Notes: generated from the sequence alone by a model not told the origin. DNA of 64,000 bases from a virus (IMGVR_UViG_2974727065_000001:11088-75087); one strand, 5' to 3'. Numbered from the stretch's first letter, positions 8,115-56,718 are shown. Numbers and translations are program-made.

Positions 8115-8260
8115 ATAGGGTGCGTTAAATAAGGGAACCCCCTTGAATAATAGGGTGCGTTAAAGAAGGGAACCCTCCCTTTCCCGAAATTCCACCCTTT
8201 CTATGCTCATCTTTCTTGATGAAAAAGAACAGAAAACAATAGGTGACGTTAAAGAGGGGG
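8115..8260 (+). promoter_or_regulatory. Cluster of three class II phage promoter-like motifs upstream of the portal
   Basis: ATAGGGTGCGTTAAA at 8115 and 8150; ATAGGTGACGTTAAAGAGGGGG at 8239. The same motif recurs across the window. Confidence 0.75.
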
Positions 8261-8294
8261 CTGACTCGTAACCCTCTATCAGAAGGAGAAATCG

Positions 8295-9908
8295 ATGTCA
8301 GAACAGAATATTTCCGTAGCTGCTGTAAAGAAAAGTGTAGCTACTCCTTCTCATGAGTATGAATCCATGAGAGACGTTTGGGCGAAGTGTCGAGCGATCA
8401 TTCGAGGTCAAGAGTCTGTTAAAGCTCATGATGCGATAGTGAATGATTATGATGAGAACGGTAACAACCGTAATCTACTGCTCCCCTTCAGTCCTTCCAT
8501 GACTCAAGCTCAGTATGACTTCTATAAGGATGAAGCTGAACTTCCCGGTATTACTTCTCAGTATGCTAAATCAATGATTGGTGCTCTTCTCCGTAAGGAC
8601 GCTGATATTGAGCTTCCTGAAGAACTTCCTGAAACACAACGAGAGGAAATCACTGAATGGCTTCGATCGAAGTTCACTTCAGATAACCGTTCTCTCTTCC
8701 ACTTCCTAGACAATGCTCTTTGGGAGGAAATGCAAACCTCTTCTGCGTGGGTTTATGTTGATGTACCTGATGTCGATGAAGATATCATTGATCAGCTAAC
8801 ACCAGAACAGAAAGAGCTTATCAAACCCTATCCTACCTTGCTTAGTGGTGAGAGTGTGATTAACGTGATTCACGGTATTCATCCTGTAACGAAGGTTCCT
8901 TCTATGGTTCGTTTCGTAACACGGCAACTCAAACCTCACTTCACAAGTGATAACCCTTGGCATCCTAAACTGGTAGACACTGTACGTGATCACTATTTGG
9001 ATGAAACAGGATTGCTTGTCGTTGACGAGTGGGTATTGGATAACAGCGGAACTCAAGCTTCTTCCGAAAACGGTAAGATCCGTCATGGTGAACTTGAACC
9101 TGAAGCCGCTGGTAAGGATGCACCTCAGTTTGAGAAGAAACAGTCTTACTTCCCGGAGAAATTCGGCAAACGACTTACACAAATCCCTGCTTGGCCTCTT
9201 GATGGAGAATCTTTCATTGAGGAGCCTATCTTGCTTACCTTCGTCAATCGCGAGGTTGGCCTTTACAATAAGGTATCTCGTCGTAACCACTTGATGTATG
9301 GTGCTGCAACCTACACACCTATCATCATTGGTGATACTGATGAAGAAGCTCAAGCAAAGATCCTTTCCTCTGGTCTTGGTTCTATCTGGTTCCTTGAAGC
9401 TAACACTACTGTTGATACTCTGGCTCCGCCTACTGAATCCCTTACAGACATGCAGAATGCTATCTCCGCTACAATGGATGAACTTGCACGTATGGGTATT
9501 CGTATGCTGGCCCCGGATACCGCAGAATCAGGTGTTGCTCTTGAACTTCGTAATGCTGGTCAGACTGCCTCTCTAGGTACTCTGAACCAGAAGATTTCAA
9601 CCACAATGCGACAAGTGTTCGCCTTCATGATCAACTGGCGTTATGATATGGAACTCACAAGTGAAGATATCAAATTCACTATGTCGAGTGACTTTAGCCC
9701 ACAAGCTCAAGGTGAAGCGGGTATGCGTCTTGTTGGGGAGTGGTATCAGATGGGTCTTATCCCTCGTTCTGTCTTCCTTGACATGGCGAAGAAGAATGAC
9801 TATATCCCGTCTGAGTATGATGATAATGAAGGTCAAGAAGAAATGGAGAAAGATCCAGTTCAGATGGCTAATGCTCAAGCAGAGCAGGATGTGACAATCC
9901 AAGAATAA
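8295..9908 (+). CDS. Portal protein (DUF4055-like)
   Basis: 537 aa, first gene of the head module; LLPFSPSM...Y.FY..AELP, ESG.AL and C-terminal W...GLI.R motifs typical of siphovirus portals. Confidence 0.82.
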   Translation: MSEQNISVAAVKKSVATPSHEYESMRDVWAKCRAIIRGQESVKAHDAIVNDYDENGNNRNLLLPFSPSMTQAQYDFYKDEAELPGITSQYAKSMIGALLRKDADIELPEELPETQREEITEWLRSKFTSDNRSLFHFLDNALWEEMQTSSAWVYVDVPDVDEDIIDQLTPEQKELIKPYPTLLSGESVINVIHGIHPVTKVPSMVRFVTRQLKPHFTSDNPWHPKLVDTVRDHYLDETGLLVVDEWVLDNSGTQASSENGKIRHGELEPEAAGKDAPQFEKKQSYFPEKFGKRLTQIPAWPLDGESFIEEPILLTFVNREVGLYNKVSRRNHLMYGAATYTPIIIGDTDEEAQAKILSSGLGSIWFLEANTTVDTLAPPTESLTDMQNAISATMDELARMGIRMLAPDTAESGVALELRNAGQTASLGTLNQKISTTMRQVFAFMINWRYDMELTSEDIKFTMSSDFSPQAQGEAGMRLVGEWYQMGLIPRSVFLDMAKKNDYIPSEYDDNEGQEEMEKDPVQMANAQAEQDVTIQE

Positions 9909-9975
9909 ACCTACCGGCGTCTAGGTAAAGCCCCGTAAAACGACCTCAAGATGAGGTTGGGGCAGACGCCTCTTT

Positions 9976-10051
9976 TCCCCTGTAGTTCAGTTGGTAGAAC
10001 ACCGGACTGTTAATCCGTATGTCGCTGGTTCGAGTCCAGCCGGGGGAGCCA
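9976..10051 (+). tRNA. tRNA-Asn (GTT)
   Basis: Cloverleaf with acceptor TCCCCTG/CGGGGGA, anticodon loop CTGTTAA, T-loop TTCGAGT and an encoded CCA. Confidence 0.95.
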
Positions 10052-10055
10052 ACTA

Positions 10056-10129
10056 TGCGCGGTAGTGTCAAGTAACACGGTAGGTTCATTACCTACAACT
10101 GGTGGTGTCAAGTCCACCCGGCGCAACCA
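10056..10129 (+). tRNA. tRNA with CAT anticodon (Met or Ile2), atypical
   Basis: D-stem GTGT/ACAC, anticodon stem GTAGG/CCTAC with loop TTCATTA, T-stem GGTGG/CCACC and ACCA end. The T-loop is non-canonical and there is one acceptor mismatch. Confidence 0.75.
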
Positions 10130-10154
10130 ACTAACCAATCAGGAGATTGCTAGA

Positions 10155-13100
10155 ATGGACATCAATCAGAAGATTTTTGATCAGATCGTTGATCATATGG
10201 GTGATGTACGTCTCTTTGAGGAGAGCGTTCAAATCGGCAATCGCCGTATCATCCGTCGCCATAGAGAGCGCCTACGAGACCTTCTCCGTAGAGACCTCAA
10301 AGAACGAACACGTTCTAATGAACCTCTGCGTCGAGAACAATCACGTTTCGCTACAGAGCTTTTCTCATGGCAGAAAACAAACCTTATGGAATTGAGCACC
10401 GCTGAAATTGACTTTATCAGTGATGCGATCTATAAGCAAACAAGAGATTTTTACCGTACACGGAAGCCTTCCACAAGGGAACTCCTTGCTGAGATTACAG
10501 GTCCGGGTATGGTGGGTGAGAAATCACTCAAAGGGAACATCAGAAACATTTCTTCTGGTGAACTCATACGTATTCAAACAAAGGTAAAGGCAGGTCTCGC
10601 TGCTGGTGCTAAGCCTGATCAGATCATTCAGGAAGTCATGAAGACTACCAAGATCACTCAGCATCAAGCAGCCACACTCACGAGAACTTCAATCACCAGC
10701 ACCCAAAGGGAAGCTGTAATGTCGGTCATGGAGAACAATGATTCTCTGATCAAAGGTTACATGTTCTCCGCTATCCTTGATAGCCGGACTTCTGGTATTT
10801 GCCGTTATCACAATGGTAAGATGTATCCTATCTCCGAGAAACGCTACAGGCCACCACTCCACTTCAACTGTCGTTCTACGATGGTTCCTGTTCTCAAAAG
10901 CAAGTCTGAATTGGCTGCTTCTAAGTCTACTCGGATCAACAAAGATGCTCTTGCAAAGAAACAACCCCAAAGCCTTTCCGGTAAAGCTCCACCTAAAGAA
11001 TCCTTTGGTGAATGGCTGAAGCGTCAAGTTTTTGATGTCCAAGTGAAGATGCTTGGAAGTGAAACTAAAGCGAACCTCTTCCGAGAAGGTAAGTTGAAGG
11101 CTGAACAGTTCATCAATGCTGCAGGGGATGCACTATCGATTACTGCTCTCCGCCGTAGGGCTGCCCTCGCTACAGAGGTATTCACGCCACGTCAGAAGAT
11201 GCGTTCTGTTGATGTTGATATCCGGGTGTCTCGTCCGAGTACTCTGGTCAACAATCCTAAGTTCCGCACTGAGGTAAGAAACCTGTATGTACTCGACTCT
11301 GATGACTGGAACAAGACTTTCGCTCTGACTGACTTCAAAGGTACAACCCTTCAAGGTAAGCAAACGGCTCGTCGGCGTGTTGGTAATCAATTCGATGAGA
11401 GTAACCACAGCTTTGATCCCTTGACTGGTGAAGCGAAGAATAACAACCTCTATGATCCCAACTTCCAGTTGTATCAGGAGCGTCTTGACTTCATGCGTAA
11501 CTCCAAGATCCTTCGTCCAGAGCACAAAGGTTTCATCCAAAGCGTATCAGATAGTCTTGAAGATAAGGTGTCGGTGAACCAACAGACAGTTGTCGTTGAG
11601 AACCTCCGTGTTGTCCTTGAACGTGCTATCAAAGATGGTAAGCCTTGGGAAGACTTTGCTTCTGTACTCCGGGCTGAGAACCGTTTTGCAGTTCAGAACG
11701 TCTCACGTCTTCTGGACACTCGCCAAAGGAAACGTAACAATCTGTTCGCTCGTTTCTTCGGTTCTAAGGACAAACCTGAGATCCAGATCATGGGTAAGTA
11801 CTACACCTTGGACCAGTTGAACGCTGATATCTTGAAAGACCAGAGAGAGATTGACTCTTTCCGTCGCAAGTATGGAACCAAACTCGCGGCTGATCTTTAC
11901 CTCAAAGGTAAGGCTCCTGCTCGTGCCTACTTCCACGGTCTTGCAGGGAAGTTCCCAACCAAGAAGAAGATCAAGAAACGTCTTCTGGAAATGGTTCCTT
12001 TCAAGAAAGAGTATGACGCTTACGTCAAGAAACGTGGTGAACCTAAAGATGAATGGTGGATCCGTCAAGCTGCTAAGTTCAATGAAGCCTATCGAAATAT
12101 CATTGATGCTGAGTGGGCAACTCTGAGTAAGAAACCTTCAACAGCACTGCTGGATGATAAGGTGATCAACTCTCTGTCTAAGTCTGTCAAGCTTGTGGCT
12201 TCTGGTCAGATGACTGACTATGATGGTCTCGCTATTGCTATCGGTAAACAGATGGCGAAAGACTTCGAAGACATCCTTCCTTTCACAAAGCATACGCTTC
12301 AGAGCTACCACAAAGAAGGCTCTCGTATCCTTGATTACATGGTAAAGCGACGTCTGATCCGAACTAATTTCCGTGGTAAAACCCGCCGTGGTGTCTATGA
12401 TGTGGACACTGGTAGAGCCTCTGGCTCGTGGGGTGATACTGTATCCCGTGAGGTTGAGATTCTTGATAAAGACATGTTGAAGCTACAAGAAGCAGAACGC
12501 CGTGTGACTATCGCTCGTCGTCTCGGTGTAGTGAATCCTCGTGATCGTCTTTACGTCCGTGCTAACAAGAAAACCTACGTTGACTCTCGTGGTAACGACA
12601 CTGGTATTCCGATTATCTCCCGTAGTAAAGCCGCGAGCTATGATCCGAAACAGATCGACCATGAAATAGCTAACATGATGAACCATGCAATGAACGTCGA
12701 GTATGAGGTTGATAATCAGTTTGTTGACTTCATGGATAGTGTTGTTCGCTTCCGTGACCCTCGTGGTAATGCGAAGTACTATGACTCTATCAACGAGTTC
12801 CGTCATGACATCCTGAAACGTGGTGATGCTGGTTATGGTCTTATGACTACAGCTAAGTGGCACGCTCAAAGAGGTAAGCCCTTCAAGACCTATGTGTACA
12901 TTGACTCTCGTGGTCGTGTATATCATCGTGGTTACTTGACACCTACTGGTGGTGAAATGGTCCGTCCTTTCTTGAACGACTCGAAAGCTACTCCTATGAA
13001 TTTCCGCGCTCTGGAAGAGTTGAGACTTCAAACAGGTGCCTTGATCGGTCCCGGTACAGAGGCTCTGACTCACCAAGGTCGTATGGAGATCTTCAAAAGG

Positions 13101-14546
13101 CATAAGAAACAAATACTTGAACTCGGTGAAATCCTACTGCAAACTACTCAGAGAGATCGTCGCATCCGTGAGTTCCTTGAGCATCCGCTAATCCGTAGTA
13201 CGGAGGGTGTAGAGGTTCCTAAGATGGCCCGTCTCGCTATGGAGTATGCGCGTATTCATCGACACACAAAAGGTGACATCAACAATGATCGTCTCCTGAA
13301 AACTTACAAAACCAAACTGATGGTAGAGAACGATGCTTCGGCATCTGGTGCTCAGATTATCGGACTCTCAACAAGGGACCGTGATATCTCCTTCGCATCC
13401 AATGTTGTTCCTACCCCTCAGAAGAACCGTCTGTATGACCTCGTTGCTATGGACACTATTGATGACCCTGAGTTTAGAAAGATCCCGGCTCTTCGTGATG
13501 CTGGATTGACTTGGGAAGACCTTGCTAAAGGCGCTAAGGCGGCTAACATGGTTACATTCTATGGTGCTGGTGCTGCAACTCAGGCTGCAAACGTAACAAA
13601 CAAAATGGTGAAAGTCCTTCAAGGAAAGGGATTTATCACTGTGACCAAAGATGAGCTTACGAACCAACTTCGTATCATCGACGGTAAAATCAAGGTGGCT
13701 GATCGTATCGGTGCCTCGGTGACTGTTGATGAGCTACGAGCATTCCGTTCAGAACTCATTGATATGGTCAATAACCAACAAAGCACTGGAATCAAACTCC
13801 TGAAAGAAGCTGAAGACATTCACCCTGATACTGCTGAATTCGTTAGAAAACTAACTGATCGCCGTAAGGGTCTTGTCGGGCCGAAGGACTTTGAACGAGT
13901 TGCTGAGATTATGGCTAAGAACCTGAATGCCCGTGCTCCTGTTACGGGAAAGTTCATTCAGTTCTGGAAGAAGGTCGCGAAAACGTATGTGAATGACTCT
14001 CAAAGCGTAGATATCCCGTGGGTAACGTTTGATGGGAAAACCATGATGCAGCGTTATCGTCCTCAACTCCAACAGAGGATCGATTTTACTGATCCTGTTT
14101 CTGGCCGAAAGATTATGAACATTTATCAAGCGGAAGCCGAAGACGGTAAACTACTTGGTAAGGGTTCGGTTGCAGACGCCTCGATTGGTCTTGGTGTTAA
14201 CGGCAACCACTCCAACGATGCCGTGATCGTTCGAAGGTTCCACTTGTGGGGCCGGAAGGAAGGTATCTCTACTGGAACCATCCACGATGCTTTCTTTACA
14301 AACGTCGCGGAAGCTGATCGTGCTGTTTATAAACTGCGAGAGATTTACGCAGATGCTATGGAGAGCAACACGATTGCAAATACCCTGAAGGCTATGCGTA
14401 AGCATGGTATGTCAGAAAAGAACTACAGAGCATTGCTCCGTGAGGCGAAGGAACTCGGTCTGATCAACCCTGCTAATCCTGTGCGCCGTGAGGAAGTGCT
14501 CGCCCCGATCCCGGAAGGTCAAACCTACTATGGGATTGGTCCGTAA
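10155..14546 (+). CDS. MuF (SPP1 gp7-like) head protein fused to a single-subunit T7-type RNA polymerase; putative virion RNAP
   Basis: MuF motifs: LDSRTS.IC, PPLHFNCRS, ESFGEWLKRQ. RNAP motifs: DSRGRVY, A (NDASASGAQ), B (AKAANMVTFYG), NHSNDA and C (IHDAF). ATG 10155 follows AGGAG; the ORF-track start at 10065 lies inside the tRNA. Confidence 0.88.
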   Translation: MDINQKIFDQIVDHMGDVRLFEESVQIGNRRIIRRHRERLRDLLRRDLKERTRSNEPLRREQSRFATELFSWQKTNLMELSTAEIDFISDAIYKQTRDFYRTRKPSTRELLAEITGPGMVGEKSLKGNIRNISSGELIRIQTKVKAGLAAGAKPDQIIQEVMKTTKITQHQAATLTRTSITSTQREAVMSVMENNDSLIKGYMFSAILDSRTSGICRYHNGKMYPISEKRYRPPLHFNCRSTMVPVLKSKSELAASKSTRINKDALAKKQPQSLSGKAPPKESFGEWLKRQVFDVQVKMLGSETKANLFREGKLKAEQFINAAGDALSITALRRRAALATEVFTPRQKMRSVDVDIRVSRPSTLVNNPKFRTEVRNLYVLDSDDWNKTFALTDFKGTTLQGKQTARRRVGNQFDESNHSFDPLTGEAKNNNLYDPNFQLYQERLDFMRNSKILRPEHKGFIQSVSDSLEDKVSVNQQTVVVENLRVVLERAIKDGKPWEDFASVLRAENRFAVQNVSRLLDTRQRKRNNLFARFFGSKDKPEIQIMGKYYTLDQLNADILKDQREIDSFRRKYGTKLAADLYLKGKAPARAYFHGLAGKFPTKKKIKKRLLEMVPFKKEYDAYVKKRGEPKDEWWIRQAAKFNEAYRNIIDAEWATLSKKPSTALLDDKVINSLSKSVKLVASGQMTDYDGLAIAIGKQMAKDFEDILPFTKHTLQSYHKEGSRILDYMVKRRLIRTNFRGKTRRGVYDVDTGRASGSWGDTVSREVEILDKDMLKLQEAERRVTIARRLGVVNPRDRLYVRANKKTYVDSRGNDTGIPIISRSKAASYDPKQIDHEIANMMNHAMNVEYEVDNQFVDFMDSVVRFRDPRGNAKYYDSINEFRHDILKRGDAGYGLMTTAKWHAQRGKPFKTYVYIDSRGRVYHRGYLTPTGGEMVRPFLNDSKATPMNFRALEELRLQTGALIGPGTEALTHQGRMEIFKRHKKQILELGEILLQTTQRDRRIREFLEHPLIRSTEGVEVPKMARLAMEYARIHRHTKGDINNDRLLKTYKTKLMVENDASASGAQIIGLSTRDRDISFASNVVPTPQKNRLYDLVAMDTIDDPEFRKIPALRDAGLTWEDLAKGAKAANMVTFYGAGAATQAANVTNKMVKVLQGKGFITVTKDELTNQLRIIDGKIKVADRIGASVTVDELRAFRSELIDMVNNQQSTGIKLLKEAEDIHPDTAEFVRKLTDRRKGLVGPKDFERVAEIMAKNLNARAPVTGKFIQFWKKVAKTYVNDSQSVDIPWVTFDGKTMMQRYRPQLQQRIDFTDPVSGRKIMNIYQAEAEDGKLLGKGSVADASIGLGVNGNHSNDAVIVRRFHLWGRKEGISTGTIHDAFFTNVAEADRAVYKLREIYADAMESNTIANTLKAMRKHGMSEKNYRALLREAKELGLINPANPVRREEVLAPIPEGQTYYGIGP

Positions 14547-17374: not shown

Positions 17375-17376
17375 TA

Positions 17377-17784: not shown

Positions 17785-18309
17785 ATGGCACATATTTCCA
17801 CTCTCGACTCTGGGGTATTCTCGTACCTCGACATCTTTAAAGGCAACATTTCCGCACTCCCTGCTGCTCCGGCTGCTGGTGACTTTGCGGCTCTGTTCAA
17901 CGGTGGCGCGGCTGATACAGTCCGTATGCCTTCGGTTCGGGAATTCCCCGCAATCGGTAACGCTGCTAACATCACCAACGTTCCTGTCTTCGGTCAGAAA
18001 CAGAGTTCTCAGGTGTCCGGTCAGGCTGATGCCCCGACTATGGACGTTACTGTCAACTACGTTCCTTCCGAAATGGAAGAGATCGAAAACCTGAAGAAGC
18101 AACGTGTGGCATTCCGCTTCATGATGGCTCGTGAAGAGGTCACTGTTGCCGAAGGTGCTGGTGCAACTCTGTCCAAAGAGAACACCGAGTTCTACTTTGT
18201 TGGTGTTATCGAAGCTGTTCAGGTTACTCCGTCGCTGACGGATGCTAACACTGCGGTGGTTAACATCTCGATCAAGGGTGACTTTGTTGGCCCTGCAACT
18301 ATCGCCTAA
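17785..18309 (+). CDS. Major tail tube protein
   Basis: VREFP.IG..ANI.NVP.FGQ..S.QVSGQADAPT pattern; upstream of the chaperones and tape measure. Confidence 0.78.
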   Translation: MAHISTLDSGVFSYLDIFKGNISALPAAPAAGDFAALFNGGAADTVRMPSVREFPAIGNAANITNVPVFGQKQSSQVSGQADAPTMDVTVNYVPSEMEEIENLKKQRVAFRFMMAREEVTVAEGAGATLSKENTEFYFVGVIEAVQVTPSLTDANTAVVNISIKGDFVGPATIA

Positions 18310-18352
18310 TAGGTTACGTTAAAGAGGGGGAGTCCTTCGGGGTTCCTCCTCC
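18309..18352 (+). promoter_or_regulatory. Class II promoter-like motif followed by a UUCG hairpin
   Basis: ATAGGTTACGTTAAAGAGGGGG then AGTCC-TTCG-GGGTTCCTCCTC. Confidence 0.7.
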
Positions 18353-24657: not shown

Positions 24658-24686
24658 GGTCATCCCTTCGGGGGTGGCCCTTTTTT
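24658..24686 (+). terminator. Intrinsic terminator ending the morphogenesis operon
   Basis: GGTCATCCC-TTCG-GGGGTGGCC followed by CTTTTTT. Confidence 0.85.
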
Positions 24687-24702
24687 ACCAAAAACGCACC
24701 CA

Positions 24703-24734
24703 AAAAAGTGAGAAAACTAAGGCATCTATAATGA
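24703..24734 (+). promoter_or_regulatory. Class I (early) promoter-like repeat, copy 1
   Basis: AAAAAGTGAGAAAACTAAGGCATCTATAATGA, identical to 25150-25181. Confidence 0.75.
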
Positions 24735-24741: not shown

Positions 24742-25158
24742 ATGAAAGGAAGTAATATGAACTTCGCAATTCGTCACCCTCAAATCCAGAACCTCATTGA
24801 CCTTGCAATGGCTTACGGTGCCGGAGACAAGAAGATCCTCGAACTCCAACTGGACATTGTTCGTCGATCTTGTATGATGGAGTGTGAACCCCATGCAAAC
24901 CTGATTGTACTTCCGGGCTGTGAACTCGGTTACATGGAAGGTATTCCGGGCGTCCTTCAGAAGTATCGGGAGAACATCCGGTATGCTGATGCAGTTGTTC
25001 TGGACCAAGGGGATCTGTGGTACGTCATCAAAGATCGTTTTGCTGGACGCCACGGGCCTATCTCGGACGACTACTTCCGTCGTCTTTTTGTACGAGAGTG
25101 TAACAACGCTCTGCGCCAACGTCAAGAACTTTGGAGGGAAAAGACCCAGAAAAAGTGA
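24742..25158 (+). CDS. Hypothetical early protein
   Basis: ORF between the two class I repeats; the likely start is the second Met, after AAGGA. Confidence 0.6.
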   Translation: MKGSNMNFAIRHPQIQNLIDLAMAYGAGDKKILELQLDIVRRSCMMECEPHANLIVLPGCELGYMEGIPGVLQKYRENIRYADAVVLDQGDLWYVIKDRFAGRHGPISDDYFRRLFVRECNNALRQRQELWREKTQKK

Positions 25159-25181
25159 GAAAACTAAGGCATCTATAATGA
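25150..25181 (+). promoter_or_regulatory. Class I (early) promoter-like repeat, copy 2
   Basis: Exact 32-bp copy of 24703-24734. Confidence 0.75.
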
Positions 25182-25287
25182 TAGAATGAAATCTATCAGC
25201 AACAAAACCTGATCACAAGAGCACAGAACAAGAATCTACAAAAAGAAGTTGTGCCAAGTGGATCTATCAAACCAAAGGAACTCGAAA

Positions 25288-25589: not shown

Positions 25590-26026
25590 TCCGTGTAATC
25601 AAAGCAATCGCTCGTGGAATTCGCAAAGTCGGTTCTGCAATCCGTAACAACCGTGTTTCGAAGTTCGTTCGTAGCAAGGTTCGTAACTACCCTGTGATTC
25701 GGACAGTTCTCATTCTGGCCGCAATCATCGCACCTGTTCTGGGTGGCGTTGCTCTGACCCCTATGATGTTCGATGCAATGCTGAAGTCCTTGCCTTTGGT
25801 CGGTATCCTGATCTCGGCAACCCTGACCTTCTGCATCATCGAAGCAGTTGTGTTTTTCAAGGCTGGTAACATCCGTCTGTGGTGGCTGTATGTCACTGGT
25901 TTTGTTCGTCACGTCCTGACACTCTCAGTGACGCTGATGATCGTAACTCACCTGATGGTTCCCTTCCTGATGATCTTCGGGATGGTAACTCTCGCCTTTT
26001 ACTTCCTCAACGGATTGGTGATCTAA
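25586..26026 (+). CDS. Hypothetical membrane protein
   Basis: About four hydrophobic segments. Confidence 0.6.
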   Translation: MIRVIKAIARGIRKVGSAIRNNRVSKFVRSKVRNYPVIRTVLILAAIIAPVLGGVALTPMMFDAMLKSLPLVGILISATLTFCIIEAVVFFKAGNIRLWWLYVTGFVRHVLTLSVTLMIVTHLMVPFLMIFGMVTLAFYFLNGLVI

Positions 26027-26539
26027 ATGTGGAAAATAACGAAATGTATCTTGCTTACGATCTTCATGTTAGGTTGTTTGACAGTTCTTGGCCTCGCTAA
26101 GATGTTGGACATCCTCTTGGGGGTCTTGAGCTGGTGCAATCAAAGAAGGAGACTTTCTATGATTCATCGAAAAGATACCGGAGCGGGGCAATACTGAATT
26201 GCTTACTCTGGTTGTTGGATCTCTAATAAAACTCGTCATGGGCGTTCTTGTCAATCTTTTAGCTGAACGTATCATGAAGTTCATCTCACCTATGCTTGAA
26301 GCTCTGATCAAGAGAAGTCTCTGGTGGGCAATGAGAAACGTATCCGCAACCTTTGTTTGAATGTCGCTGTAGTGCCTATGTGCAGAGCGTAGGATCGGGC
26401 ATTCTCAAAGATGATGGCGCAGGTTCCCTTAGTTGGGTGCCTTAAACTCTATAACACCAAGTGGTAAACGCCAAGCTGGCAACCGTCAAACGACACACCG
26501 TAATGGAATCGCCCTAAGTGGCACTGAAAGGAACTAACT

Positions 26540-26866
26540 ATGACTTACCGTTTTTACCGTGGCTGCAGCATGACTGAAGCAAAAGAACTGGTCGGTGGGA
26601 TCCAAACTAAGGACTTCACCCACTGGACTGACAGCGGAGAAAAGGCTGCGATGTATGCACGTCGCTACAAGGATGGGGCGATCGTCTGCTTTGAAGTTGA
26701 TGAACTCCCTGTTCACTGGAATACTCGTAAGAGTGTTGCCGAAGGTGATGCTGTTCACGGGAACATCCCGGAATGGCGTATCCCTCGTCAATATTTCAAT
26801 CAGGACCGGGGTCTTTGGTGCATGACCGAAGAAGCTCGTATCTTCCTGCCGACCGACTTCCAGTAA
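26540..26866 (+). CDS. Small ADP-ribosyltransferase-like protein
   Basis: YRG near the N-terminus, HWTDS..KA.MYA and a downstream E-W; spacing resembles the ART fold. Confidence 0.4.
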   Translation: MTYRFYRGCSMTEAKELVGGIQTKDFTHWTDSGEKAAMYARRYKDGAIVCFEVDELPVHWNTRKSVAEGDAVHGNIPEWRIPRQYFNQDRGLWCMTEEARIFLPTDFQ

Positions 26867-26899
26867 GACCCAAACCCAAACCCTAGTAGGAGACAAACA

Positions 26900-27214
26900 A
26901 TGTACAACTTCTTCAACATCATTCGTGCCGAAAACGCAGCCCTGAATCGTGGTCAGTTCCTCGTTGGGATGCTCTATGTCTTCGGTATGATGCTTCTGTT
27001 CTTGCTTGCAGAGTCCGAAGCTTCGGCAATCTCGATCATCGCTGTGCTGGCGGCAATCTATGTCCGCACAGTGATTAGCTTCAAACGACTCAATGATCTC
27101 GGACATCATTGGGCCTTCCTGATTCTCGGCTTCATCCCGATTGTCGAAACTATCTTCCTCGTTTATCTGGCAGCAATGCCCGGTAAAGAAAACAACCGTA
27201 GTGTCTTGAGCTAA
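26900..27214 (+). CDS. DUF805-like membrane protein
   Basis: KRLNDLG..W....IP....PG pattern. Confidence 0.7.
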   Translation: MYNFFNIIRAENAALNRGQFLVGMLYVFGMMLLFLLAESEASAISIIAVLAAIYVRTVISFKRLNDLGHHWAFLILGFIPIVETIFLVYLAAMPGKENNRSVLS

Positions 27215-27226
27215 GGAGAAACACCA

Positions 27227-27622
27227 ATGACACCTACAATGTGCCTTGCAATGGCCCTTTACTTTGAGGTACGTGGCGAAATGAAACATGACCCGGATGC
27301 GGGTTATGCAGTCGCCGAAGTGATCATGAACAGGGTCGAAGATCGTCGTTGGCCTGATAACGTCTGTGCTGTCATCCAGCAGGACAAAGGACCGAAGCCT
27401 CACGACTGTCAGTTCTCATTTTACTGTGATGGGAAGTCTGACAAAATGGGTGACGTTAAAGCCCGTGAGCAGTCGATCGCTATTGCCAAGGATGTCCTTG
27501 CAGGTGAACGACCACTCGGAATCACTTCCAACCACTACCACACCGACAAGGTGAACCCTTCGTGGAACAAGCGAATGGAGTTTGACGGCCTGATTGGTGG
27601 TCATCTCTTCTTCACATATTAA
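27227..27622 (+). CDS. sleB: SleB-like cell wall hydrolase (Hydrolase_2)
   Basis: CLA.A.YFE.RGE, AVAEVIMNRV...P..VC.V, CQFS.YCDG, HYH...V.P.W and IG.H.F motifs. Confidence 0.85.
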   Translation: MTPTMCLAMALYFEVRGEMKHDPDAGYAVAEVIMNRVEDRRWPDNVCAVIQQDKGPKPHDCQFSFYCDGKSDKMGDVKAREQSIAIAKDVLAGERPLGITSNHYHTDKVNPSWNKRMEFDGLIGGHLFFTY

Positions 27623-27647
27623 TGTAACAACTACAGGATAAAGCGAA

Positions 27648-28361
27648 ATGGACTTCCTGAAGAACCTCAACCCCGTCTGGAATGTTTTCATCAATGTTGC
27701 TGTGGATGCAGCAGACCCCTTCCCGGACTTCTTCCAAGAACCCCGTGAGGCTATCGAAGAGTGGAGCAATTCCCTTGGTTGTGGTATGTACTCAGAGGTT
27801 TACCCCTCTACCAAAGAAGACTTCGTCATCAAGATCGGTAACGATATTCACGATGATGGTTGGCTTCACTATGCACTCCGGTGCATTGAAACTAACTCGA
27901 AGTACTCCTTCATGCCGACGATCAAGAAACTCTTGGTGGACTTCAACAGCAAAGAGTTCTTTGGAGTCATCGAACGGTTGGAGCCTTTGAAGGGTGACTA
28001 CGAAGAGAAACCAGACATCTGGATTCAGTATGATATGGGTGATCGGTCGGTCCTCCAATCCAAACTGTACAGTTCAGAACTTCCGAAAGATGTTATGGAT
28101 GAAATGGTTGAGTTTCTTGATGGAGAGTCAGAAGCAACCAAACACCATGACCCCTTCCGTTTGGATGCTCACCATGACAACTGGATGACCCGTGAAGATG
28201 GGTCGTTCGTCCTGACAGATCCGTTCTCTCGAACCTCTGTCGGAGAATACACCAAGAAGCTTCTTCGCCAGTTGGCGGAGTCGCACCCTAACCAAGTCCG
28301 TGTGATCGAAGAAGACCACGGTTACTATCCCCCAGAGATCGCTATCGCAGCAGCACAATAA
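27648..28361 (+). CDS. T7 gp0.7-like Ser/Thr protein kinase
   Basis: LG.G.YS.VY glycine loop, VIKIG, D.H..N.M catalytic loop and VLTDP. Confidence 0.75.
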   Translation: MDFLKNLNPVWNVFINVAVDAADPFPDFFQEPREAIEEWSNSLGCGMYSEVYPSTKEDFVIKIGNDIHDDGWLHYALRCIETNSKYSFMPTIKKLLVDFNSKEFFGVIERLEPLKGDYEEKPDIWIQYDMGDRSVLQSKLYSSELPKDVMDEMVEFLDGESEATKHHDPFRLDAHHDNWMTREDGSFVLTDPFSRTSVGEYTKKLLRQLAESHPNQVRVIEEDHGYYPPEIAIAAAQ

Positions 28362-28982
28362 GGAACTACACTATGAACACCCAAACTCAGATCTTCACCG
28401 CAGACGAAGCCCGTAAAGTTGAGCGCAAAGCAATCCAGTGGATCTTCAAGAACATCACCTGTTCGAAGACTCCGGTTCAGGATTTCTCGGTTCGGGCCAA
28501 CTTCAAAGGCGCTACGAAAACCATCACTGTCAACTTCAGCAAGTAAGGAATCTTATGTTGAACAAAATCAAACAAACCGCGAAGGCTGTGAACAACAAAC
28601 TTGATGCTTGGTGTGAGCGTTCTCCGAGGCTGGCACTCTCGATCATCGGGCTTGTGATATTCTCATTCCTTGGATTCCTCCTTGGAGTATTTGTGATCGG
28701 GTTCCTCTCATTCCTTCTTTGGGAATTGCCGGTTTCGTCTCCTCTTCTTCTTTTCCGAGGAACTACGGCGCTCGGCTTCATTGTCGGAGTGATCTTCATC
28801 CTTGATAAGGATGGTGCAAATGTCCTTGACCGATAAACTAGAAGCTCGCGTTATCGCACCCTATGAAGAACTGGAGTTCTGCCCTGTGCTGGACTTCAAA
28901 GATGGTGTTTATATCGTCCTGAAAGACCCTGACGGTATCAACCGTTTCATCGACCTGAAAACAACACAAGTGGAAATCCAAA

Positions 28983-29537
28983 ATGTGCAATGAGAAAATC
29001 GCTCTCGGCTACGAACTCTACACCTCTGGTTACGTGAACCGTTACCACTCGCATCCTCACCCTCATCTGCGGAATGCACAAGACCTGACGGACGCTCACA
29101 GCAACCGTATGGTGAAGCTTCTGTATCTGTTCTTCCCCGAACTTGCTCATCGGGGGACTCTGGTGGCTTACATCGTCATGCACGATGCAGGAGAATCGGC
29201 TTCCGGTGACAGCCCGTTCACTGCGAAGATCGCCAATCCGAAGTTGAAGGAAGCTCTGGATGAGGTTGAAGGTCAACGTCTGGCACAGTTCTATGGGCTG
29301 TTTCAGAATGATCTTCGTATCGACCTGACCCAGAAAGAAGAGAACGTGGTCAAGCTGCTGGATCTTCTCGAAAGCTTCTTGTTCCAAGCGATCCACGCAC
29401 CGGGGCGTATGGACGAAGAGCATCACCTCTTTCAGAACATCGAGAAGCGTGCTCGTGAACTGGAAGTCTACCCTGAAGTTCGCTGTATGATGATGCACGC
29501 ACTTCACCGCAACAATGCCGCAACGAAAGGCTACTAA
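28983..29537 (+). CDS. HD-domain phosphohydrolase (YfbR/DatZ-like)
   Basis: V.RYH, HS, HD..E...GD.P and VK..D.LE motifs. Confidence 0.75.
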   Translation: MCNEKIALGYELYTSGYVNRYHSHPHPHLRNAQDLTDAHSNRMVKLLYLFFPELAHRGTLVAYIVMHDAGESASGDSPFTAKIANPKLKEALDEVEGQRLAQFYGLFQNDLRIDLTQKEENVVKLLDLLESFLFQAIHAPGRMDEEHHLFQNIEKRARELEVYPEVRCMMMHALHRNNAATKGY

Positions 29538-29633
29538 CTATGGAAGAAATGATCATTGAAGGTCTGCAATCACCTTGGTTGATTGTTGTTCCTGTTGTCG
29601 CTCTGATTTTGGTATGGGTCTTGAAAGGAGATC

Positions 29634-29879
29634 TTGATGAGTAACTTTCTTGTGAAAGCTCTCTCGGAAGCTGATGCAGAAGGCTTCCAAACCTTTGAGG
29701 TTCAACGCCGCTCTCCGTTCAGTGGCAAGATGAACACAATGACTCTGCGTTTCGACGCGGGGTCTCTTGAAGCTTGGCTTCGTGGAGAAATGCTGATTCA
29801 AGATGCCTTCCCTCACCTGAATGCTGATGAACGCGAATTCATCAAGACAGGTATCACCGCCGAAGAGTGGCCTTCATAG
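29634..29879 (+). CDS. Conserved hypothetical phage protein
   Basis: W..G..IQDAFP.L.ADEREFI.TG pattern. Confidence 0.6.
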   Translation: MMSNFLVKALSEADAEGFQTFEVQRRSPFSGKMNTMTLRFDAGSLEAWLRGEMLIQDAFPHLNADEREFIKTGITAEEWPS

Positions 29880-29888
29880 GAGACTACA

Positions 29889-30417: not shown

Positions 30418-30446
30418 ACAACTCTCTGATAGAAGGAAAAGAGAAC

Positions 30447-31256: not shown

Positions 31257-31268
31257 GACCTCACCCTT

Positions 31269-31328: not shown

Positions 31329-31348
31329 CGAAATGATGAGGAGAAAGA

Positions 31349-35144: not shown

Positions 35145-35467
35145 GTGACTTCATAAACAAGACCAATCAAGGTCGTGTTAAAAAGATGGTTGAACTTGTT
35201 GGTTACATGGAGAAATCAGCAGCAAACAACGATGCTACTCCAGAGGACTGGCAAGAACTACTTGAACCAATCCTTGCTCTGTTGAAAACTAAGGTACCCG
35301 AAGAAATAGGGTGCGTTAAAGATGAACCACCTAAGAAACCCCGCTATGGAACAGCTTCTTGGGCAACCATCCGAGAGATTGCAGAAGATGCTCCTCTCAA
35401 AGACCTGACTGTCGCTATGGCAGTCTACCTCAATCGCATAGATGAGGAACTGCACTCTAAACGATAG
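35141..35467 (+). CDS. Hypothetical protein
   Basis: 108 aa; contains a class II motif at 35306. Confidence 0.55.
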   Translation: MSDFINKTNQGRVKKMVELVGYMEKSAANNDATPEDWQELLEPILALLKTKVPEEIGCVKDEPPKKPRYGTASWATIREIAEDAPLKDLTVAMAVYLNRIDEELHSKR

Positions 35468-35481
35468 GGTGCGTTAAAGAG
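35306..35481 (+). promoter_or_regulatory. Two class II promoter-like motifs upstream of SSB
   Basis: ATAGGGTGCGTTAAAG at 35306 and 35464. Confidence 0.7.
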
Positions 35482-43594: not shown

Positions 43595-44076
43595 CTTCCG
43601 CTTTAACTCTGTAGATATGTTGCTCATGGACCCCTTCTTCGTGAAGGGCGTCCTGATGGTGATGTACAACCACACGAACCCAGAAACAATCAAAGAAGAG
43701 GAACCTGAGTTGTTCTCACTGATTACACAGATCTTCGACGAAGAAGCCGTTGAAGTTGAGGAGTCATGGGTGATTCCACACGCGAGCTTTGATTATGCTC
43801 AGTCCTTGATGGACGAAACCAAAATACCAAAGGAAAGGATAAACTAACATGAGTTATACACCGAAAGACTATGCGGAATTTCTGAAGACCGCTTACCGAA
43901 ACAACAAAGATGACATGGTGGATCACCTTGATAAAGAAGACATCAAGGCTCACTACCCTGAACACTTCCTAGAAGAGACCCGGAAAATCATTACACCTGA
44001 TCGAGTTACGATAGGTGACGTTAAAGCGGGAGCCTCAATCTCTGTCGCTAAACCGAAATCAAAGAAACTGAAATAA
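43587..44076 (+). CDS. Two small hypothetical proteins (43587-43847, 43849-44076)
   Basis: + strand ORFs filling the gap. Confidence 0.5.
44011..44030 (+). promoter_or_regulatory. Class II promoter-like motif upstream of RNR
   Basis: ATAGGTGACGTTAAAGCGGG. Confidence 0.65.
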
Positions 44077-47407: not shown

Positions 47408-48834
47408 GAATGAACAAGAAACTAAAAAAGTACCTACCCATGTTCCTCTGGAACTTCTATGTGTGCATGGTGATCAAAGAGCTACGTGGGCCAAGTATGA
47501 AGTTTTACGCTGCCGCTTGGACCTACTATCTGAGTATCGTAGTAAGCTTCCCTCTCTGGATCTGGGGTGTGCTGTTCTCTTTGATCCACATCATATCAGA
47601 GGCTATCATGGACGCTTACGAGAAGTACGTTCTCGGCTATCCCATGCGACCTGTGATCCTACTGAGAAAACGTGCAGAAAGACTTAGAGCGAAATCTTTC
47701 CGTGTTCTGAAACCTGAAGAAATCCGTAAACGTTTGGAGCTTGAATAACATGCAAATCGTAGCAGATAACACCTACCGCCCTACTACTTCCTATGTCAAG
47801 TGCATTGGCGCGGAGACTCAGTTCTACAAGACCGGACAACGCTACAAGGTCTTCAAAAAGGAAGGTGATGAAAAAGGTCGATACGTCCAAGGTTCTGACG
47901 GGATCTTCGATCGGATCGGTATGACTGTTTCCAAATTCAAAGCAGAGGAGAAGTGAGAGTGCATATCGTTATGAACAACTGTGATGTAGTGATGCGTTAT
48001 GAAACCAAAGGTGACGAGGGTGAAATCGTCGCTCGTCGTATCGACGTGGGAGACCCTGAACCAGATCAAGAACTGATACAGATTACTGAGTCAGCTTACG
48101 AACTCTGGATAGGGTGCGTTAAAGCGGGGGAAACCATTCTGGGCCTCGCTGACTGGTACAACGAAAACAAAGAAACATTGGAGTAAAGAAAGAATGGCTG
48201 CACCTAAGAAAGCAACCGCAACCCCTGCCAAACGGCGTAAGAAAGTCCTGAAACGGGTTCCTGAAGAGATCGTGAAAGATGCTGCGGTCAGTCTGGGACG
48301 CCGGAATGTGAGCATTCTGGTTTTCGGTCTGGATGAGTTCAATGAAATGTTCCTTCATCAGTTCATGAAGAACTTGAACAACCGTCTTCGGTTCAGTGCC
48401 TTCGATAATAACGTTGCAAGTCGGATGACGGCAACTATCGGACGTTACCAACACTCCCTTGGTCGAGCAGAGTTCATCAACCCTCAATCAGTGTTCCAAG
48501 CAGGTTGGGCTGACGTGATTGTCTTTGGCACCGAGGAAAGCTTCGAGCTGTATTCAGAAGGCAAGAAACTACAAGATCTCTACAAAGAGATTGTCGTGTT
48601 GGAGAAGTTCTGATGCAAGACGGTTATGATGAGGTATTCCACCTACAAGGAAATACTGAAGGTGAGTACCTTATGATCAAGGTGACAGGAACAGAAATGT
48701 CTCCGGAGAATGACTTGTTCTTCTCAGACATCATGCACGTTGAATACAAAGGTCAACCCTACACGATCCATTGGGATGACTATGATGCTTGTTATGCAGG
48801 AAGGGTAGATGGGAAATATGGATACGTATACTGA
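47404..48834 (+). CDS. Run of hypothetical proteins (47404-47748, 47741-47956, 47953-48186, 48194-48613, 48613-48834)
   Basis: Coupled + strand ORFs. Confidence 0.5.
48109..48130 (+). promoter_or_regulatory. Class II promoter-like motif
   Basis: ATAGGGTGCGTTAAAGCGGGGG. Confidence 0.7.
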
Positions 48835-52889: not shown

Positions 52890-52893
52890 CGCT

Positions 52894-54125: not shown

Positions 54126-54162
54126 ACCATAACCCTACTAACGTATCACAGAGGAAACCATA

Positions 54163-54819: not shown

Positions 54820-55049
54820 CATCATGTTGAAGAACCCAACTGTCAATCTTCGGATTGAAGGCTTGCAACTCGTCTCCTACGTTGATACAGACTTCGGTGG
54901 ACCCGCAAGAAACGTCATTGCTGTCGATGATGACCCAGCCAACTTACAACGCAAAGGTGAGCTTGTTAGAGCGATGACACCTTCTGAGCAGCGTTGCATT
55001 TGGTACGACGAAAGAGAAGACGTATTTGGACTGAACAAGGAGAACGACC

Positions 55050-55955
55050 ATGCGTAACACACCAATGCTTATCGGCTCTCGTGCTATGGACTACTGGAAA
55101 GAAGGTCGGACAATCTTCGATCGGAAGACTGATTGGGACTTCATCTGTTCAAAGGTGATGTTCGACCTGATGAAAGAGAAAGTTAAGGATCGTCCTTTCG
55201 CTCACATGACTGATGAGCCTCGTTTGGAATGGCATGATCCAGATCACCTGAACAACGGCGAACTCTATGACAACTTCAAGGGTCGTTGTGGCGTTGAGGT
55301 TGTTGGTCTTTGGGGTGCAGTCCTGATTGCTCCTCCGAAACTTCTCTACATCCTGAAGCGTTCTCATGCGTGGCGGGATCGTAACCATGAGAAGACTCTC
55401 ACTCATCTTTGGAGGGAAGAACTCTACAAACACAAACCCTCACCAAACTCCTTCGATGAAGATCTGTTGAAGGAACGGATCAAACTCACCAAGAAGGCTT
55501 ACCCGCAAGGGAATCCTAACTTGAATCAGTCTGTCGAGGACTTCTTTGATGATCCTGTCAAGAAGGTTTTTGAACATGATTGGCTCCATGAGCTTTACGC
55601 TTATGACGGTGTACCGATGTATACTAAGCTCCAACCGGACCCTTCGAAGGCTTGGTGTGCCAAGGATAAGTGGGATCAACTGGCTCATTATGAGAAGTTG
55701 TATTGTGTTGCTGAAGAGACCTATGTGATCGCTACAGAGCGGTTCATGGTTCCTCGTGGTTGGAAGTACCCTGCACCACTCGCCTACTACAAAGCCTTGA
55801 ACAAGGTTTGCACAACTCTCTGCTCCGGTTGGTTCCGGGATTTTGCTATCGACAACTATGGACCTATCATGGATCTTATGGAGAAGAAACGCTTCGAAGA
55901 GATCCGCCGTAAGATAGGTGACGCTAAAGACAAAGGGGAAGCTCGTTATGCCTGA
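55050..55955 (+). CDS. Nucleotidyltransferase-like protein
   Basis: LIGSRA...DWD pol-beta-type signature at the N-terminus. Confidence 0.55.
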   Translation: MRNTPMLIGSRAMDYWKEGRTIFDRKTDWDFICSKVMFDLMKEKVKDRPFAHMTDEPRLEWHDPDHLNNGELYDNFKGRCGVEVVGLWGAVLIAPPKLLYILKRSHAWRDRNHEKTLTHLWREELYKHKPSPNSFDEDLLKERIKLTKKAYPQGNPNLNQSVEDFFDDPVKKVFEHDWLHELYAYDGVPMYTKLQPDPSKAWCAKDKWDQLAHYEKLYCVAEETYVIATERFMVPRGWKYPAPLAYYKALNKVCTTLCSGWFRDFAIDNYGPIMDLMEKKRFEEIRRKIGDAKDKGEARYA

Positions 55956-56676
55956 GTACCATGTTTATATGACTGTTAAGAACCAAGAGTGCTATGTCGT
56001 GGAGGCTGACTGTGAGAAGGAAGCTATCGAAATTGTTGAGAATGGTGATGGTACCTACAACTGGACTGAGCACGCTATCGAAGCTGAAGTGACTCACGCT
56101 GAGGAAGTGAAGGAAGAAGAAGATGTTGTTTGAGGACTGGTGGGAAACCGTAAAGGAAGAAATCAAAGACAACTGCGATAATCGTATGGATGAGTACGAT
56201 GCAGAATATTGGCTTCAGAAAGCTTTTGAAGCTGGTGAGAAGAACGCTAAACAAAACAACCGCTGATAGGAGACTACACAATGACCAACGTTAACTACAA
56301 AGACCTGCTGATCGCCACCCTGAAATCCAACCGTCAACTGTGCGAGTCTCTGATGGACTCTGAACCGGGCTACAATGTGCTTCACTATAGCCACGACATT
56401 CTTCAGAGCTTCTGCGATGGTGCTGAAGTACTGGATAACTACGGTGGTGAGAACCAAGGATCGACTTACTATTCTGTTGTTCGCTTTGAACTGAAAGATG
56501 GGCAGGGCTATGCCACCCTAAAATTCGAAGGTTGGTACGCGTCTTATAACGGTGCTGACTTTGAACGCTTCTTTGAAGTGTATGGTGTTGAAGTCACCAA
56601 GACCGAGTGGCGTCAAGGCTCTTCTGAGGAATACGAGCCGGGTTCCTATGAGGACTACAGCACAAGCTCCTACTAA
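55948..56676 (+). CDS. Small hypothetical proteins (55948-56133, 56281-56676)
   Basis: + strand ORFs with RBSs. Confidence 0.5.
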
Positions 56677-56681
56677 GAATT

Positions 56682-56702
56682 AGGGCCAAAACGGCCCTTT
56701 TT
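56682..56702 (+). terminator. Intrinsic terminator
   Basis: AGGGCC-AAAAC-GGCCCT followed by TTTT. Confidence 0.7.
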
Positions 56703-56705
56703 CAC

Positions 56706-56718
56706 GCATCTATAATGA
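56706..56718 (+). promoter_or_regulatory. Class I promoter core, copy 3
   Basis: GCATCTATAATGA, identical to the 3' 13 bp of the 24703/25150 repeats; again directly after a terminator. Confidence 0.65.

Follow-up and report, generated by a model that had tools for sequence, protein, structure and literature searches.

How does a phage that encodes two RNA polymerases of its own begin to transcribe its genome? The question is raised by a 64,000-nucleotide (nt) stretch of viral DNA (IMGVR_UViG_2974727065_000001:11088-75087; the whole of this stretch is referred to as the window), which comprises bases 11088-75087 of a 75,087-bp phage record (~85% of the genome), and in which all called genes are on the + strand. 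Two T7-type RNA polymerases (RNAPs) are encoded, one fused to a MuF-type head protein (MuF-RNAP) and one free-standing (RNAP2), and two repeated motifs, here termed class I and class II, precede different gene blocks. At a rough probability of 0.55, we read this arrangement as a two-step cascade independent of host RNAP, in which MuF-RNAP would transcribe from class I, RNAP2 would be made and would transcribe from class II, and new MuF-RNAP would result. MuF-RNAP is 99.5% and RNAP2 99.6% identical to proteins of Bacteriophage DSS3_PM1 (MN602267.1; Naomviridae, Noahvirus), described in the main text of PMC8323127 as a siphovirus of Ruegeria pomeroyi in whose DNA deoxyuridine (dU) replaces deoxythymidine (dT). 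A tape-measure protein is encoded in the window (profile match).

The polymerase genes and the head genes upstream of MuF-RNAP are as follows.

8295-9908, + strand: portal gene (phrog_145, E 6.8e-46; Pfam DUF4055)
9976-10051, + strand: tRNA-Asn (GTT), between portal and MuF-RNAP (ARAGORN; Rfam tRNA, 69.3 bits)
10155-14546, + strand (open reading frame, ORF, opens at 10065): MuF-RNAP gene; the ATG form has 1,463 amino acids (aa), laid out as a MuF/SPP1-gp7 head domain (~1-370), a middle region, and a T7-like RNAP module (~700-1463); predicted to be an early polymerase delivered by the virion
31349-33547, + strand: RNAP2 gene, a free-standing T7-like RNAP of 732 aa, the predicted middle/late polymerase

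Only two Pfam domains are present in MuF-RNAP. Phage_Mu_F (PF04233) scores 51.6 bits (cut-off 29.6) at E 1.8e-13, and RNA_pol (PF00940) scores 27 bits (cut-off 22) at E 2.5e-6. In PHROGs, its N-terminal part matches head-morphogenesis families (E 1.3e-53, phrog_241) and its C-terminal part RNA polymerase (E 5.4e-25). RNAP2 matches PF00940 at E 8.5e-83 (279 bits) and T7 RNAP at E 1.8e-58. Judged by their alignment, the two polymerases are only remotely related: the best BLASTP E-value between them is 0.013, and MuF-RNAP 702-1433 and RNAP2 58-709 share 15% identity over 609 profile columns (hhalign). The original prediction of two divergent T7-type RNAP genes, at 10155 and 31349, is thus borne out by the family matches, by this low mutual identity, and by the invariant catalytic residues described below. 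The head module has the order portal, tRNA-Asn, MuF-RNAP, a 248-aa ORF, and capsid protein; the position of the MuF-RNAP gene, behind class II sites in a portal-MuF-scaffold-capsid arrangement, is the usual one for a MuF/gp7 minor head protein.

Both enzymes look catalytically active, because the residues that correspond to the T7 catalytic set are invariant: D1060, K1128, Y1136, H1352, and D1378 in 114/114 MuF-RNAP homologues, and D388, K512, Y520, H648, and D671 in 117/117 RNAP2 homologues. The T7 counterparts are D537 and D812 (motifs A and C), K631/Y639 (motif B), and H784 (NxxHSxD), with numbering checked against the alignments; DSRGRVY, ENDASASG, K...FYGAG, NGNHSND, and IHDAF of MuF-RNAP align opposite the T7 motifs. 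Among solved structures, MuF-RNAP matched only T7 RNAP (E 0.004 with the single sequence, E 1.5e-5 with a 31-sequence profile), and N4 mini-vRNAP gave no match at E<=1 when the 31-homologue profile was run against all PDB sequences (five returned, all T7 RNAP). T7-like RNAPs have a C-terminal end of the FAFA type that folds into the active site; RNAP2 ends in SDFAFS, and MuF-RNAP in YYGIGP, which is not of this type and is kept in the family consensus. Residues 371-700 of MuF-RNAP resemble RPOL_N-type clusters in a language-model look-up (score 0.76), which serves as a lead only.

There are 455 MuF-RNAP homologues at E<=1e-3, and 113 of the 119 other family members listed are 1,400-1,620 aa long; on this count the fusion is a conserved family trait. 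It is very improbable that the RNAP module is something other than a transcriptase for gene expression, whether a primase for incoming dU-DNA or a relic. Nothing specific favours such a role beyond the general point that T7-type RNAPs are able to prime replication elsewhere; a primase-helicase is encoded by the phage itself (41687-43594, + strand; profile matches), and a relic would not be expected to conserve its catalytic residues and full length in 114 homologues.

Some family members depart from this form. In EBPR siphovirus 1 (JF412302.1) a MuF-RNAP homologue of ~30% identity is interrupted by an HNH endonuclease gene (gp47/gp48/gp49; 25771-31144); no RNAP2 was found in the first 50 kb of this partial record, which is uninformative, class I was not found either, and its only strong repeat is a 15-nt tandem repeat with pentapeptide-like coding at 1414-1620. 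In one relative (G016; loci L120 and L123) the MuF-RNAP match falls into two pieces ~400 nt apart within one 1,584-aa frame, suggesting an insertion between the MuF and polymerase parts; several homologues of ~1,590 aa exist.

What, then, lies upstream of RNAP2? The class I copies in the window, and the terminator-like elements near them and near RNAP2, are as follows.

24658-24679, + strand: strong intrinsic-terminator-like hairpin and T-run at the end of the late (tail) unit (9 pairs, 6 of them G-C, then CTTTTTT), just before class I copy 1
24702-24734, + strand: class I copy 1, opening the early block and made up of the A-rich GTGAGAAAA element and GCATCTATAATGA; it matches the 43-bit family profile
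25149-25198, + strand: class I copy 2, with a downstream hairpin TGATAGA-N6-TCTATCA from the last T of TATAAT
31302-31319, + strand: terminator-like hairpin and T-run directly upstream of RNAP2
56683-56718, + strand: terminator-like hairpin GGGCC-N5-GGCCC and T-run, then class I copy 3, heading a lineage-specific cargo block

The class I 13-mer, GCATCTATAATGA, occurs in three exact copies in the window (24722, 25169, and 56706), all on the + strand, against none in 100 shuffles, and the 11 kb of the genome outside the window hold none. These positions agree with the original prediction that class I opens both the early block leading to RNAP2 and the block at 56.7 kb. The full element is ~35 nt long, AAAAAGTGAGAAAA-N5-GCATCTATAATGA(A/T), of which copies 1 and 2 hold ~33 nt. 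Copy 3 consists of the 13-mer only, without the upstream element; in DSS3_PM1 this 13-mer is kept and its flanks differ. The 660-aa gene behind copy 3 has no homologue in five relatives.

Comparison was made with 80 IMG/VR loci that carry RNAP2 relatives (44-61% identity), found via an alignment of RNAP2 homologues. In these loci, 102 copies of the class I core TCTATAATG lie on the same strand as the gene and two on the opposite strand. A profile built from 67 distinct sites (43 bits; threshold >=15 bits) has 104 matches on the + strand and none on the - strand in the 80 loci and this genome; the profile was trained on the same loci, which makes the number of matches partly circular and counts against leaning on it, although the asymmetries of strand and position are free of this. 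Relative to RNAP2, 102 class I sites lie upstream and none downstream, at a distance of 557-6605 nt (median 2373), and at least one site is present in 35 of the 41 loci that have at least 4 kb upstream of RNAP2. A reverse search that made no use of RNAP2 found the class I composite pattern in 69 IMG/VR stretches: in each of the 27 that extend at least 4 kb downstream, an RNAP2 homologue follows on the same strand after 0.8-4.2 kb, and the 36 other stretches without an RNAP2 match have <4 kb downstream.

Because RNAP2 lies inside the class I operon, something other than RNAP2 must read class I first, and at time zero only host RNAP and injected proteins are available. Before these two are weighed, the second motif is needed, since RNAP2 very probably reads class II, as sequence comparison and the analogy with T7-type phages suggest. 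The class II sites in the window are as follows.

8115-8130, 8150-8165, and 8239-8254, + strand: three tandem class II sites upstream of the portal/MuF-RNAP module, conserved in DSS3_PM1
18309-18324, + strand: class II site before the tail and tape-measure genes, followed by a 5' stem-loop of -18.3 kcal/mol
27446-27461, + strand: class II-like site ATGGGTGACGTTAAAG (1 mismatch), inside the endolysin-like early-block ORF 27227-27622, conserved in DSS3_PM1
34839, 35306, and 35464 (span 34839-35479), + strand: three class II sites opening the replication/nucleotide-metabolism block after the early operon
44011-44026, + strand: class II site before the ribonucleotide reductase (RNR) genes
48109-48124, + strand: class II site
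55914-55929, + strand: class II variant CGCTAAAG (1 mismatch), conserved in DSS3_PM1

The class II consensus is ATAGGnnnCGTTAAAG. With up to 2 mismatches, the pattern ATAGGNNNCGTTAAAG has 14 matches in the window. Twelve are on the + strand, 11 of them with no more than 1 mismatch, and the two on the - strand each have 2 mismatches; in 100 shuffles the mean count was 0.71 and the highest 3. The whole genome has 16 + strand matches. One site, at 62906, has 2 mismatches, lies within an ORF, and is doubtful. The original placement of class II before replication, RNR, and virion genes, including MuF-RNAP itself, is confirmed by the positions of the sites. Its claim that the two motifs are distributed separately needs one correction, in that the class II-like site at 27446 is inside the early block. 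That site could possibly provide positive feedback on RNAP2 expression, although a function for it is doubtful.

The promoters of T3 and SP6 carry ...TAAAG at the start site, with AGGTGAC in SP6, and T7 phi10 RNA opens with a stem-loop. We take class II to resemble T3/SP6 promoters: its sites are followed by AGGGGG-type starts, and folds of <= -8 kcal/mol from or next to the final G are found at 8/16 sites, compared with 17% of random 36-mers. Related phages carry equivalents that differ by lineage (AATA(C/G)CTGACGTTAAAG, ACCAGGGGACGCTAAAG, AAATAGGGCGGAATAATGA, AAATACTGCCGCCTAATGA, and TAATAGAGGCCCATAATGA); six lineage variants were seen. By its repetition before gene blocks on the coding strand and its lineage specificity, class II looks like a phage promoter of the T3/SP6 type with a predicted start site. 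The RNAP2 positions aligned to T7 N748, R756, and Q758 have 12, 11, and 8 residue types among the 117 homologues; class II variation together with these hypervariable loop positions is what one would expect if a T7-type polymerase and its promoter are paired here.

Could RNAP2 read both motifs? The original prediction had called them unrelated, which holds for their -12 to -7 regions and not for their ends, as each class closes with TAA(A/T)GA and a stem-loop comes next. The start for both classes would most likely be the G that ends ...TAA(A/T)G, because the 5' stem-loops begin there. The common ending would suit a single enzyme for both classes, with class I a variant RNAP2 promoter, or a late role for free MuF-RNAP at some of the class II promoters, as would the existence of class II sub-variants in the window (GGGTGC, GGTTAC, and GGTGAC). 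We consider either version improbable: RNAP2 cannot precede transcription of its own operon, the -12 to -7 regions are unrelated between the classes, and the class II sub-variants do not separate middle from late genes.

The weightier alternative for class I is a scheme of the T7/Xp10 type, in which host sigma-70 holoenzyme would read class I via TATAAT, perhaps with a host or injected factor on the GTGAGAAAA box, before RNAP2 takes class II; MuF-RNAP would then act elsewhere, for example in DNA pull-in, pre-early transcription from an undetected site, or priming. This is possible, but we hold it to be rather unlikely. The hexamer of class I, in sites scored on the upstream part only, is indeed a perfect TATAAT in 65/75 cases, with the remainder being TATAAC (4), TATAGT (2), TATAGC (1), GATAAT (1), and none recognisable (2, likely false). 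The rest of a sigma-70 promoter is missing. With TTGACA placed at 16-18 nt spacing, 0/79 sites reach 4/6 and 52 have only 1/6, compared with 107/676 other TATAAT occurrences in the same DNA that reach 4/6; a TG extended -10 is absent from class I, in which the bases before the hexamer are ATC rather than TGn. A generic sigma-70 consensus scan of the window showed no excess (10 vs 10.8 expected; 14 vs 16.9) and did not call the class I sites.

Positions that sigma-70 does not read are fixed, in that GCATC precedes the hexamer in 53/75 sites and GA follows it in 64/75, across phages with 36-48% G+C and 44-61% RNAP2 identity, and lineage G003 has TATAAC at 3/3 of its class I sites. The class I composite pattern has no match in 185,579 bacterial and archaeal species genomes (one genome per species). 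Stem-loops provide a further point. A perfect hairpin is present at 45 of all 81 class I sites and begins at the last T of the hexamer in 30/45 (control 153/2000); in the 'GAT' (TAATGAT) subtype it is present at 34/38 sites, with stems of 6-8, loops of 3-6, and inner pairs that co-vary. A sigma-70 start, ~7 nt further on, would cut such stem-loops. Host RNAP at class I would also leave a conserved, catalytically intact, head-fused polymerase without a role. Taken together, the reading of class I by host sigma-70 is weakened.

Two hairpin candidates for class I itself were rejected. An N4-like promoter hairpin does not fit: 22/31 sites of the 'GAA' subtype have no hairpin, and existing hairpins are downstream; upstream of the start, the main class I consensus contains no inverted repeat. 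A GGGG-N7-CCCC hairpin in the CCCTC variant of class I was inconsistent across copies. Separately, many early 5' leaders in L007-L039 (e.g., L013 7363 and L012 4346) have a conserved ...CCAAGTGGAAACCAAGAGGAG... between hairpin and start codon, a stretch that goes beyond a plain ribosome-binding site.

We take T7 R746, N748, R756, and Q758 to be base-contacting residues. The MuF-RNAP positions aligned to these are far less variable than those of RNAP2: in 114 homologues, 1308 carries R in 89 cases and S in 19, 1310 carries E in 87 and D in 17, 1318 is R in 113/114, and 1320 is V or I only. Overall divergence is equal, with mean top-residue frequencies of 0.68 and 0.67 in the two polymerase sets. 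In 12 genomes in which motif and loop could be paired, five with GCATC have R1308 and R1318, four with GTATC have S1308, and three with CCCTC (two of them independent) have E or Q at 1318. For both polymerases, promoter variability thus appears to mirror that of the specificity loop at the residues predicted to read bases. The co-variation of motif and loop, put forward originally as a check, was seen at the contact-equivalent positions and in three clades only. Conservation over the whole loop does not clearly set the two enzymes apart, whereas the four contact-equivalent positions do.

Several observations weigh against MuF-RNAP as the reader of class I, and some favour host RNAP directly. 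Most phages use host RNAP for their early genes, and the prevalence of perfect TATAAT noted above is what sigma-70 would require; conservation of class I could reflect the universal -10 rule of sigma-70 combined with some additional factor. The MuF-RNAP loop segment as a whole is 47-68% identical between genomes, compared with 46-63% for the rest of the protein, and half of it differs between genomes with an identical class I; since the whole loop is not specially conserved, the case for a conserved loop depends on the four aligned positions, and these were mapped to T7 from the weak alignments cited above (E 0.004 and 1.5e-5). The co-variation of loop and promoter is confounded by descent, because three clades are all that it covers. 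At ~35 nt, class I is longer than a T7-type promoter; its bipartite shape is nearer to a bacterial promoter or a T4 middle promoter with its activator box than to the 23-nt T7 promoter. Copy 3 in the window has no upstream half. Finally, a divergent subclade discussed below includes a complete genome (G021) that keeps MuF-RNAP without detectable class I.

How general is the arrangement? All five long relatives (G001-G005; 61-80 kb) carry both polymerases, with 1-3 class I sites apiece at 1.7-6.6 kb before RNAP2, usually right behind a terminator-like GGCC...TTTTTT. From the end of RNAP2 to the first class II analogue the distance is 17-449 nt in five relatives, compared with 1,295 nt in the window phage. 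In G000, G003, and G005, MuF-RNAP is preceded by a class II analogue at a distance of ~1.9-2.2 kb, and G003 has the same tandem class II arrangement upstream of the portal/MuF-RNAP module. The order kept across these phages is thus terminator, class I, small early genes, RNAP2, class II, and then the rest, including MuF-RNAP. The order early promoters, early genes, RNAP, and phage promoters is also that of T7, and in this respect the layout would equally suit host RNAP as the reader of class I. Of 15 class-I-bearing contigs, 11 have MuF-RNAP, among them every one of the 3 with a completeness rating of 90% or more; completeness is 15-62% in the 4 that lack it. In Pelagibacter phage Kolga, which encodes an RNAP2-type enzyme and whose MuF protein is a plain one of 633 aa, class I is absent (best score 4.7 bits).

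In the divergent subclade (G006/G021; loci L074, L113-L115, L194, and L231), RNAP2 is ~44% identical and structural genes are on the opposite strand to the RNAP2 and replication genes. Neither class I nor any other repeated motif was detected upstream of RNAP2 in this subclade; CTATAAC matches were rejected as class I, being in coding sequence. Five fragments have no MuF-RNAP match, and the portal of G006 is at the contig edge. The expectation that absence of class I should mean absence of MuF-RNAP failed here, which tells mildly against a strict link between the two.

On balance we retain the two-step cascade, the steps of which would run as follows. MuF-RNAP would be made late, together with the head proteins, and its MuF/SPP1-gp7-type domain would place it in the capsid at the portal. 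It would enter the cell with the dU-DNA and initiate at the 1-3 class I promoters just behind the tail-operon terminator, giving an operon of small early genes of which the last large gene is RNAP2. RNAP2 would recognise the T3/SP6-like class II promoters, which begin right after its own gene, a step well supported by analogy and comparison. Genes for replication, nucleotide metabolism, lysis, and the virion, portal and MuF-RNAP among them, would be transcribed from class II, which would close the loop. The original prediction had proposed such a cascade; the comparisons all agree with it (co-occurrence, operon order, lack of a -35, and loop variability), and packaging and injection of MuF-RNAP, as well as its reading of class I in place of host RNAP, are the parts that we infer. 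The main text of PMC8323127 contains no virion proteome.

Several features of the early block bear on its regulation. A 269-aa protein with two helix-turn-helix motifs (HTH_23, E 3.4e-9) is encoded directly upstream of RNAP2 (30447-31348), and, together with the hairpin at 31302-31319, it may act as regulator and attenuator of RNAP2 expression. The protein encoded at 27648-28361 has a weak PHROG match (E 9.6e-10) to the family of the T7 gp0.7-type kinase/host-transcription shut-off protein; if real, this match would fit independence from host RNAP. The early block also encodes an endolysin/cell-wall-hydrolase-like protein (27227-27622; phrog_938, E 1.7e-15), distinct from the endolysin encoded at 7008-7532. 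Also in the block is a 179-nt gap (26361-26539) with no ORF, no promoter motif, and no Rfam match.

Is this cascade a form of one already known? To our knowledge, virion-carried RNAPs are known from few phage groups only: N4-like, phiKZ/AR9-like, crAss-like, and P23-45. In N4 and the Schitoviridae, passages of PMC4496689 give the order of action as vRNAP (gp50), RNAPII, and then host RNAP. The likeness is that a virion RNAP of the T7 family (packaging being predicted here) reads a few early promoters, three in N4 and 1-3 here, and that the early genes supply a second, small T7-like RNAP (PMC4496689, in the same passages). The differences are several. The N4 vRNAP is a protein of ~3,500 aa with zincin-like peptidase domain(s), according to part of Iyer et al. 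(2017; PMC5512222), whereas a 1,463-aa MuF fusion is found here, to which N4 mini-vRNAP has no sequence match. N4 promoters are DNA hairpins centred at -11 (PMC4496689, same passages), whereas class I hairpins, where present, are downstream. RNAP2 appears to serve late genes too, with no host-RNAP step evident, and the phage is a siphovirus with a tape-measure protein (morphology from the main text of PMC8323127). On each feature compared (size, peptidase fusion, sequence, and hairpin promoter), MuF-RNAP falls outside the N4 vRNAP group. The analogy with N4 drawn in the original prediction is thus sound as to the logic of the loop, but the sequence of MuF-RNAP is not that of an N4-type vRNAP, and class I is no hairpin promoter of the N4 kind.

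Thermus phage P23-45 is conceptually the nearest known system, to judge from part of PMC10770324: it is a siphovirus whose virion has a structural protein fused to an RNAP, and this RNAP transcribes the first genes, among them that of a second, non-virion RNAP. There, however, the enzymes are of the cellular multisubunit type and the fusion partner is the tape-measure protein (PMC10770324, same part), whereas here they are T7-type single-subunit enzymes and the partner is MuF. Another likeness is with MuF-fused effector proteins ('polyvalent' or polymorphic-toxin proteins), in which a MuF/SPP1-gp7 domain carries a C-terminal enzyme with predicted delivery alongside the DNA; the cargo here is instead a whole RNA polymerase, and the available part of PMC5512222 mentions no MuF-RNAP fusion and confines N4-like virion RNAP modules to N4-like phages.

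In T7, T3, SP6, and the siphovirus Xp10, the polymerase is of the ordinary T7 family to which RNAP2 also belongs, and the promoters share with class II a T3/SP6-like sequence, a G-rich start, a 5' stem-loop, and lineage-wise change of promoter and loop; unlike here, early transcription in them starts at host sigma-70 promoters that have a -35 box, and they are not known to carry a polymerase in the head. The cascade proposed here would be a variant of the strategy that combines a virion RNAP with a second RNAP, widespread in marine phages. Term counts gave zero occurrences of 'RNA polymerase' or 'RNAP' in the main text of PMC8323127 and in the 2025 dU-pathway paper (PMC12697855), and PMC12629253 had none of the terms searched; literature searches, supplementary files excluded, found no published description of a MuF-RNAP fusion or of a Naomviridae cascade.

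The odds are evenly balanced on a wider claim, namely that in the Naomviridae and many uncultured relatives from the sea the entire programme depends on two orthogonal single-subunit RNAPs and not on host RNAP, with MuF as the injection vehicle and a new bipartite ~35-nt promoter on uracil-DNA. The early promoter would be nearly the same in phages whose proteins are only about half identical, while RNAP2 and its promoters co-diversify. The family is present in 93% of 243 Tara samples, according to the main text of PMC8323127. If the cascade is as proposed, the virion RNAPs would gain, in the MuF-fused T7-type enzyme, a compact marine representative that is very widespread, with hundreds of protein clusters, and the MuF 'effector delivery' scaffold would be shown to be able to carry a whole polymerase. 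The start of gene expression in a dU-DNA phage would be explained; a frozen and a fast-evolving polymerase-promoter pair would offer a natural contrast within the same genomes; and two new orthogonal RNAP/promoter pairs that work on uracil-DNA would become available.

The block headed by class I copy 3 (56748-63658) encodes the 660-aa protein (phrog_1735), a nicotinamide phosphoribosyltransferase (PF04095, E 2e-35), a weakly matched phosphoribosyltransferase-like protein, a K+-channel-like protein (Ion_trans_2), and a glutathionylspermidine synthase (E 1.5e-131); such cargo may serve NAD+ salvage or counter-defence. The remaining features concern the genome as a whole and its tail and lysis genes.

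2-5287, + strand: giant tail-fibre/host-specificity gene
7008-7532, + strand: endolysin gene

The two ends of the record overlap by ~127 nt, and the main text of PMC8323127 has no report on genome termini. Outside the window, a 287-nt intergenic stretch (genome C1 2823-3109) lies upstream of small genes that precede the terminase and contains neither promoter class; it could be a packaging or replication signal. Gaps in the terminase region fit the intron reported in the main text of PMC8323127. Within the tail-fibre gene, 30-nt (10-aa) tandem repeats form long runs at 1664-3174 of the window.

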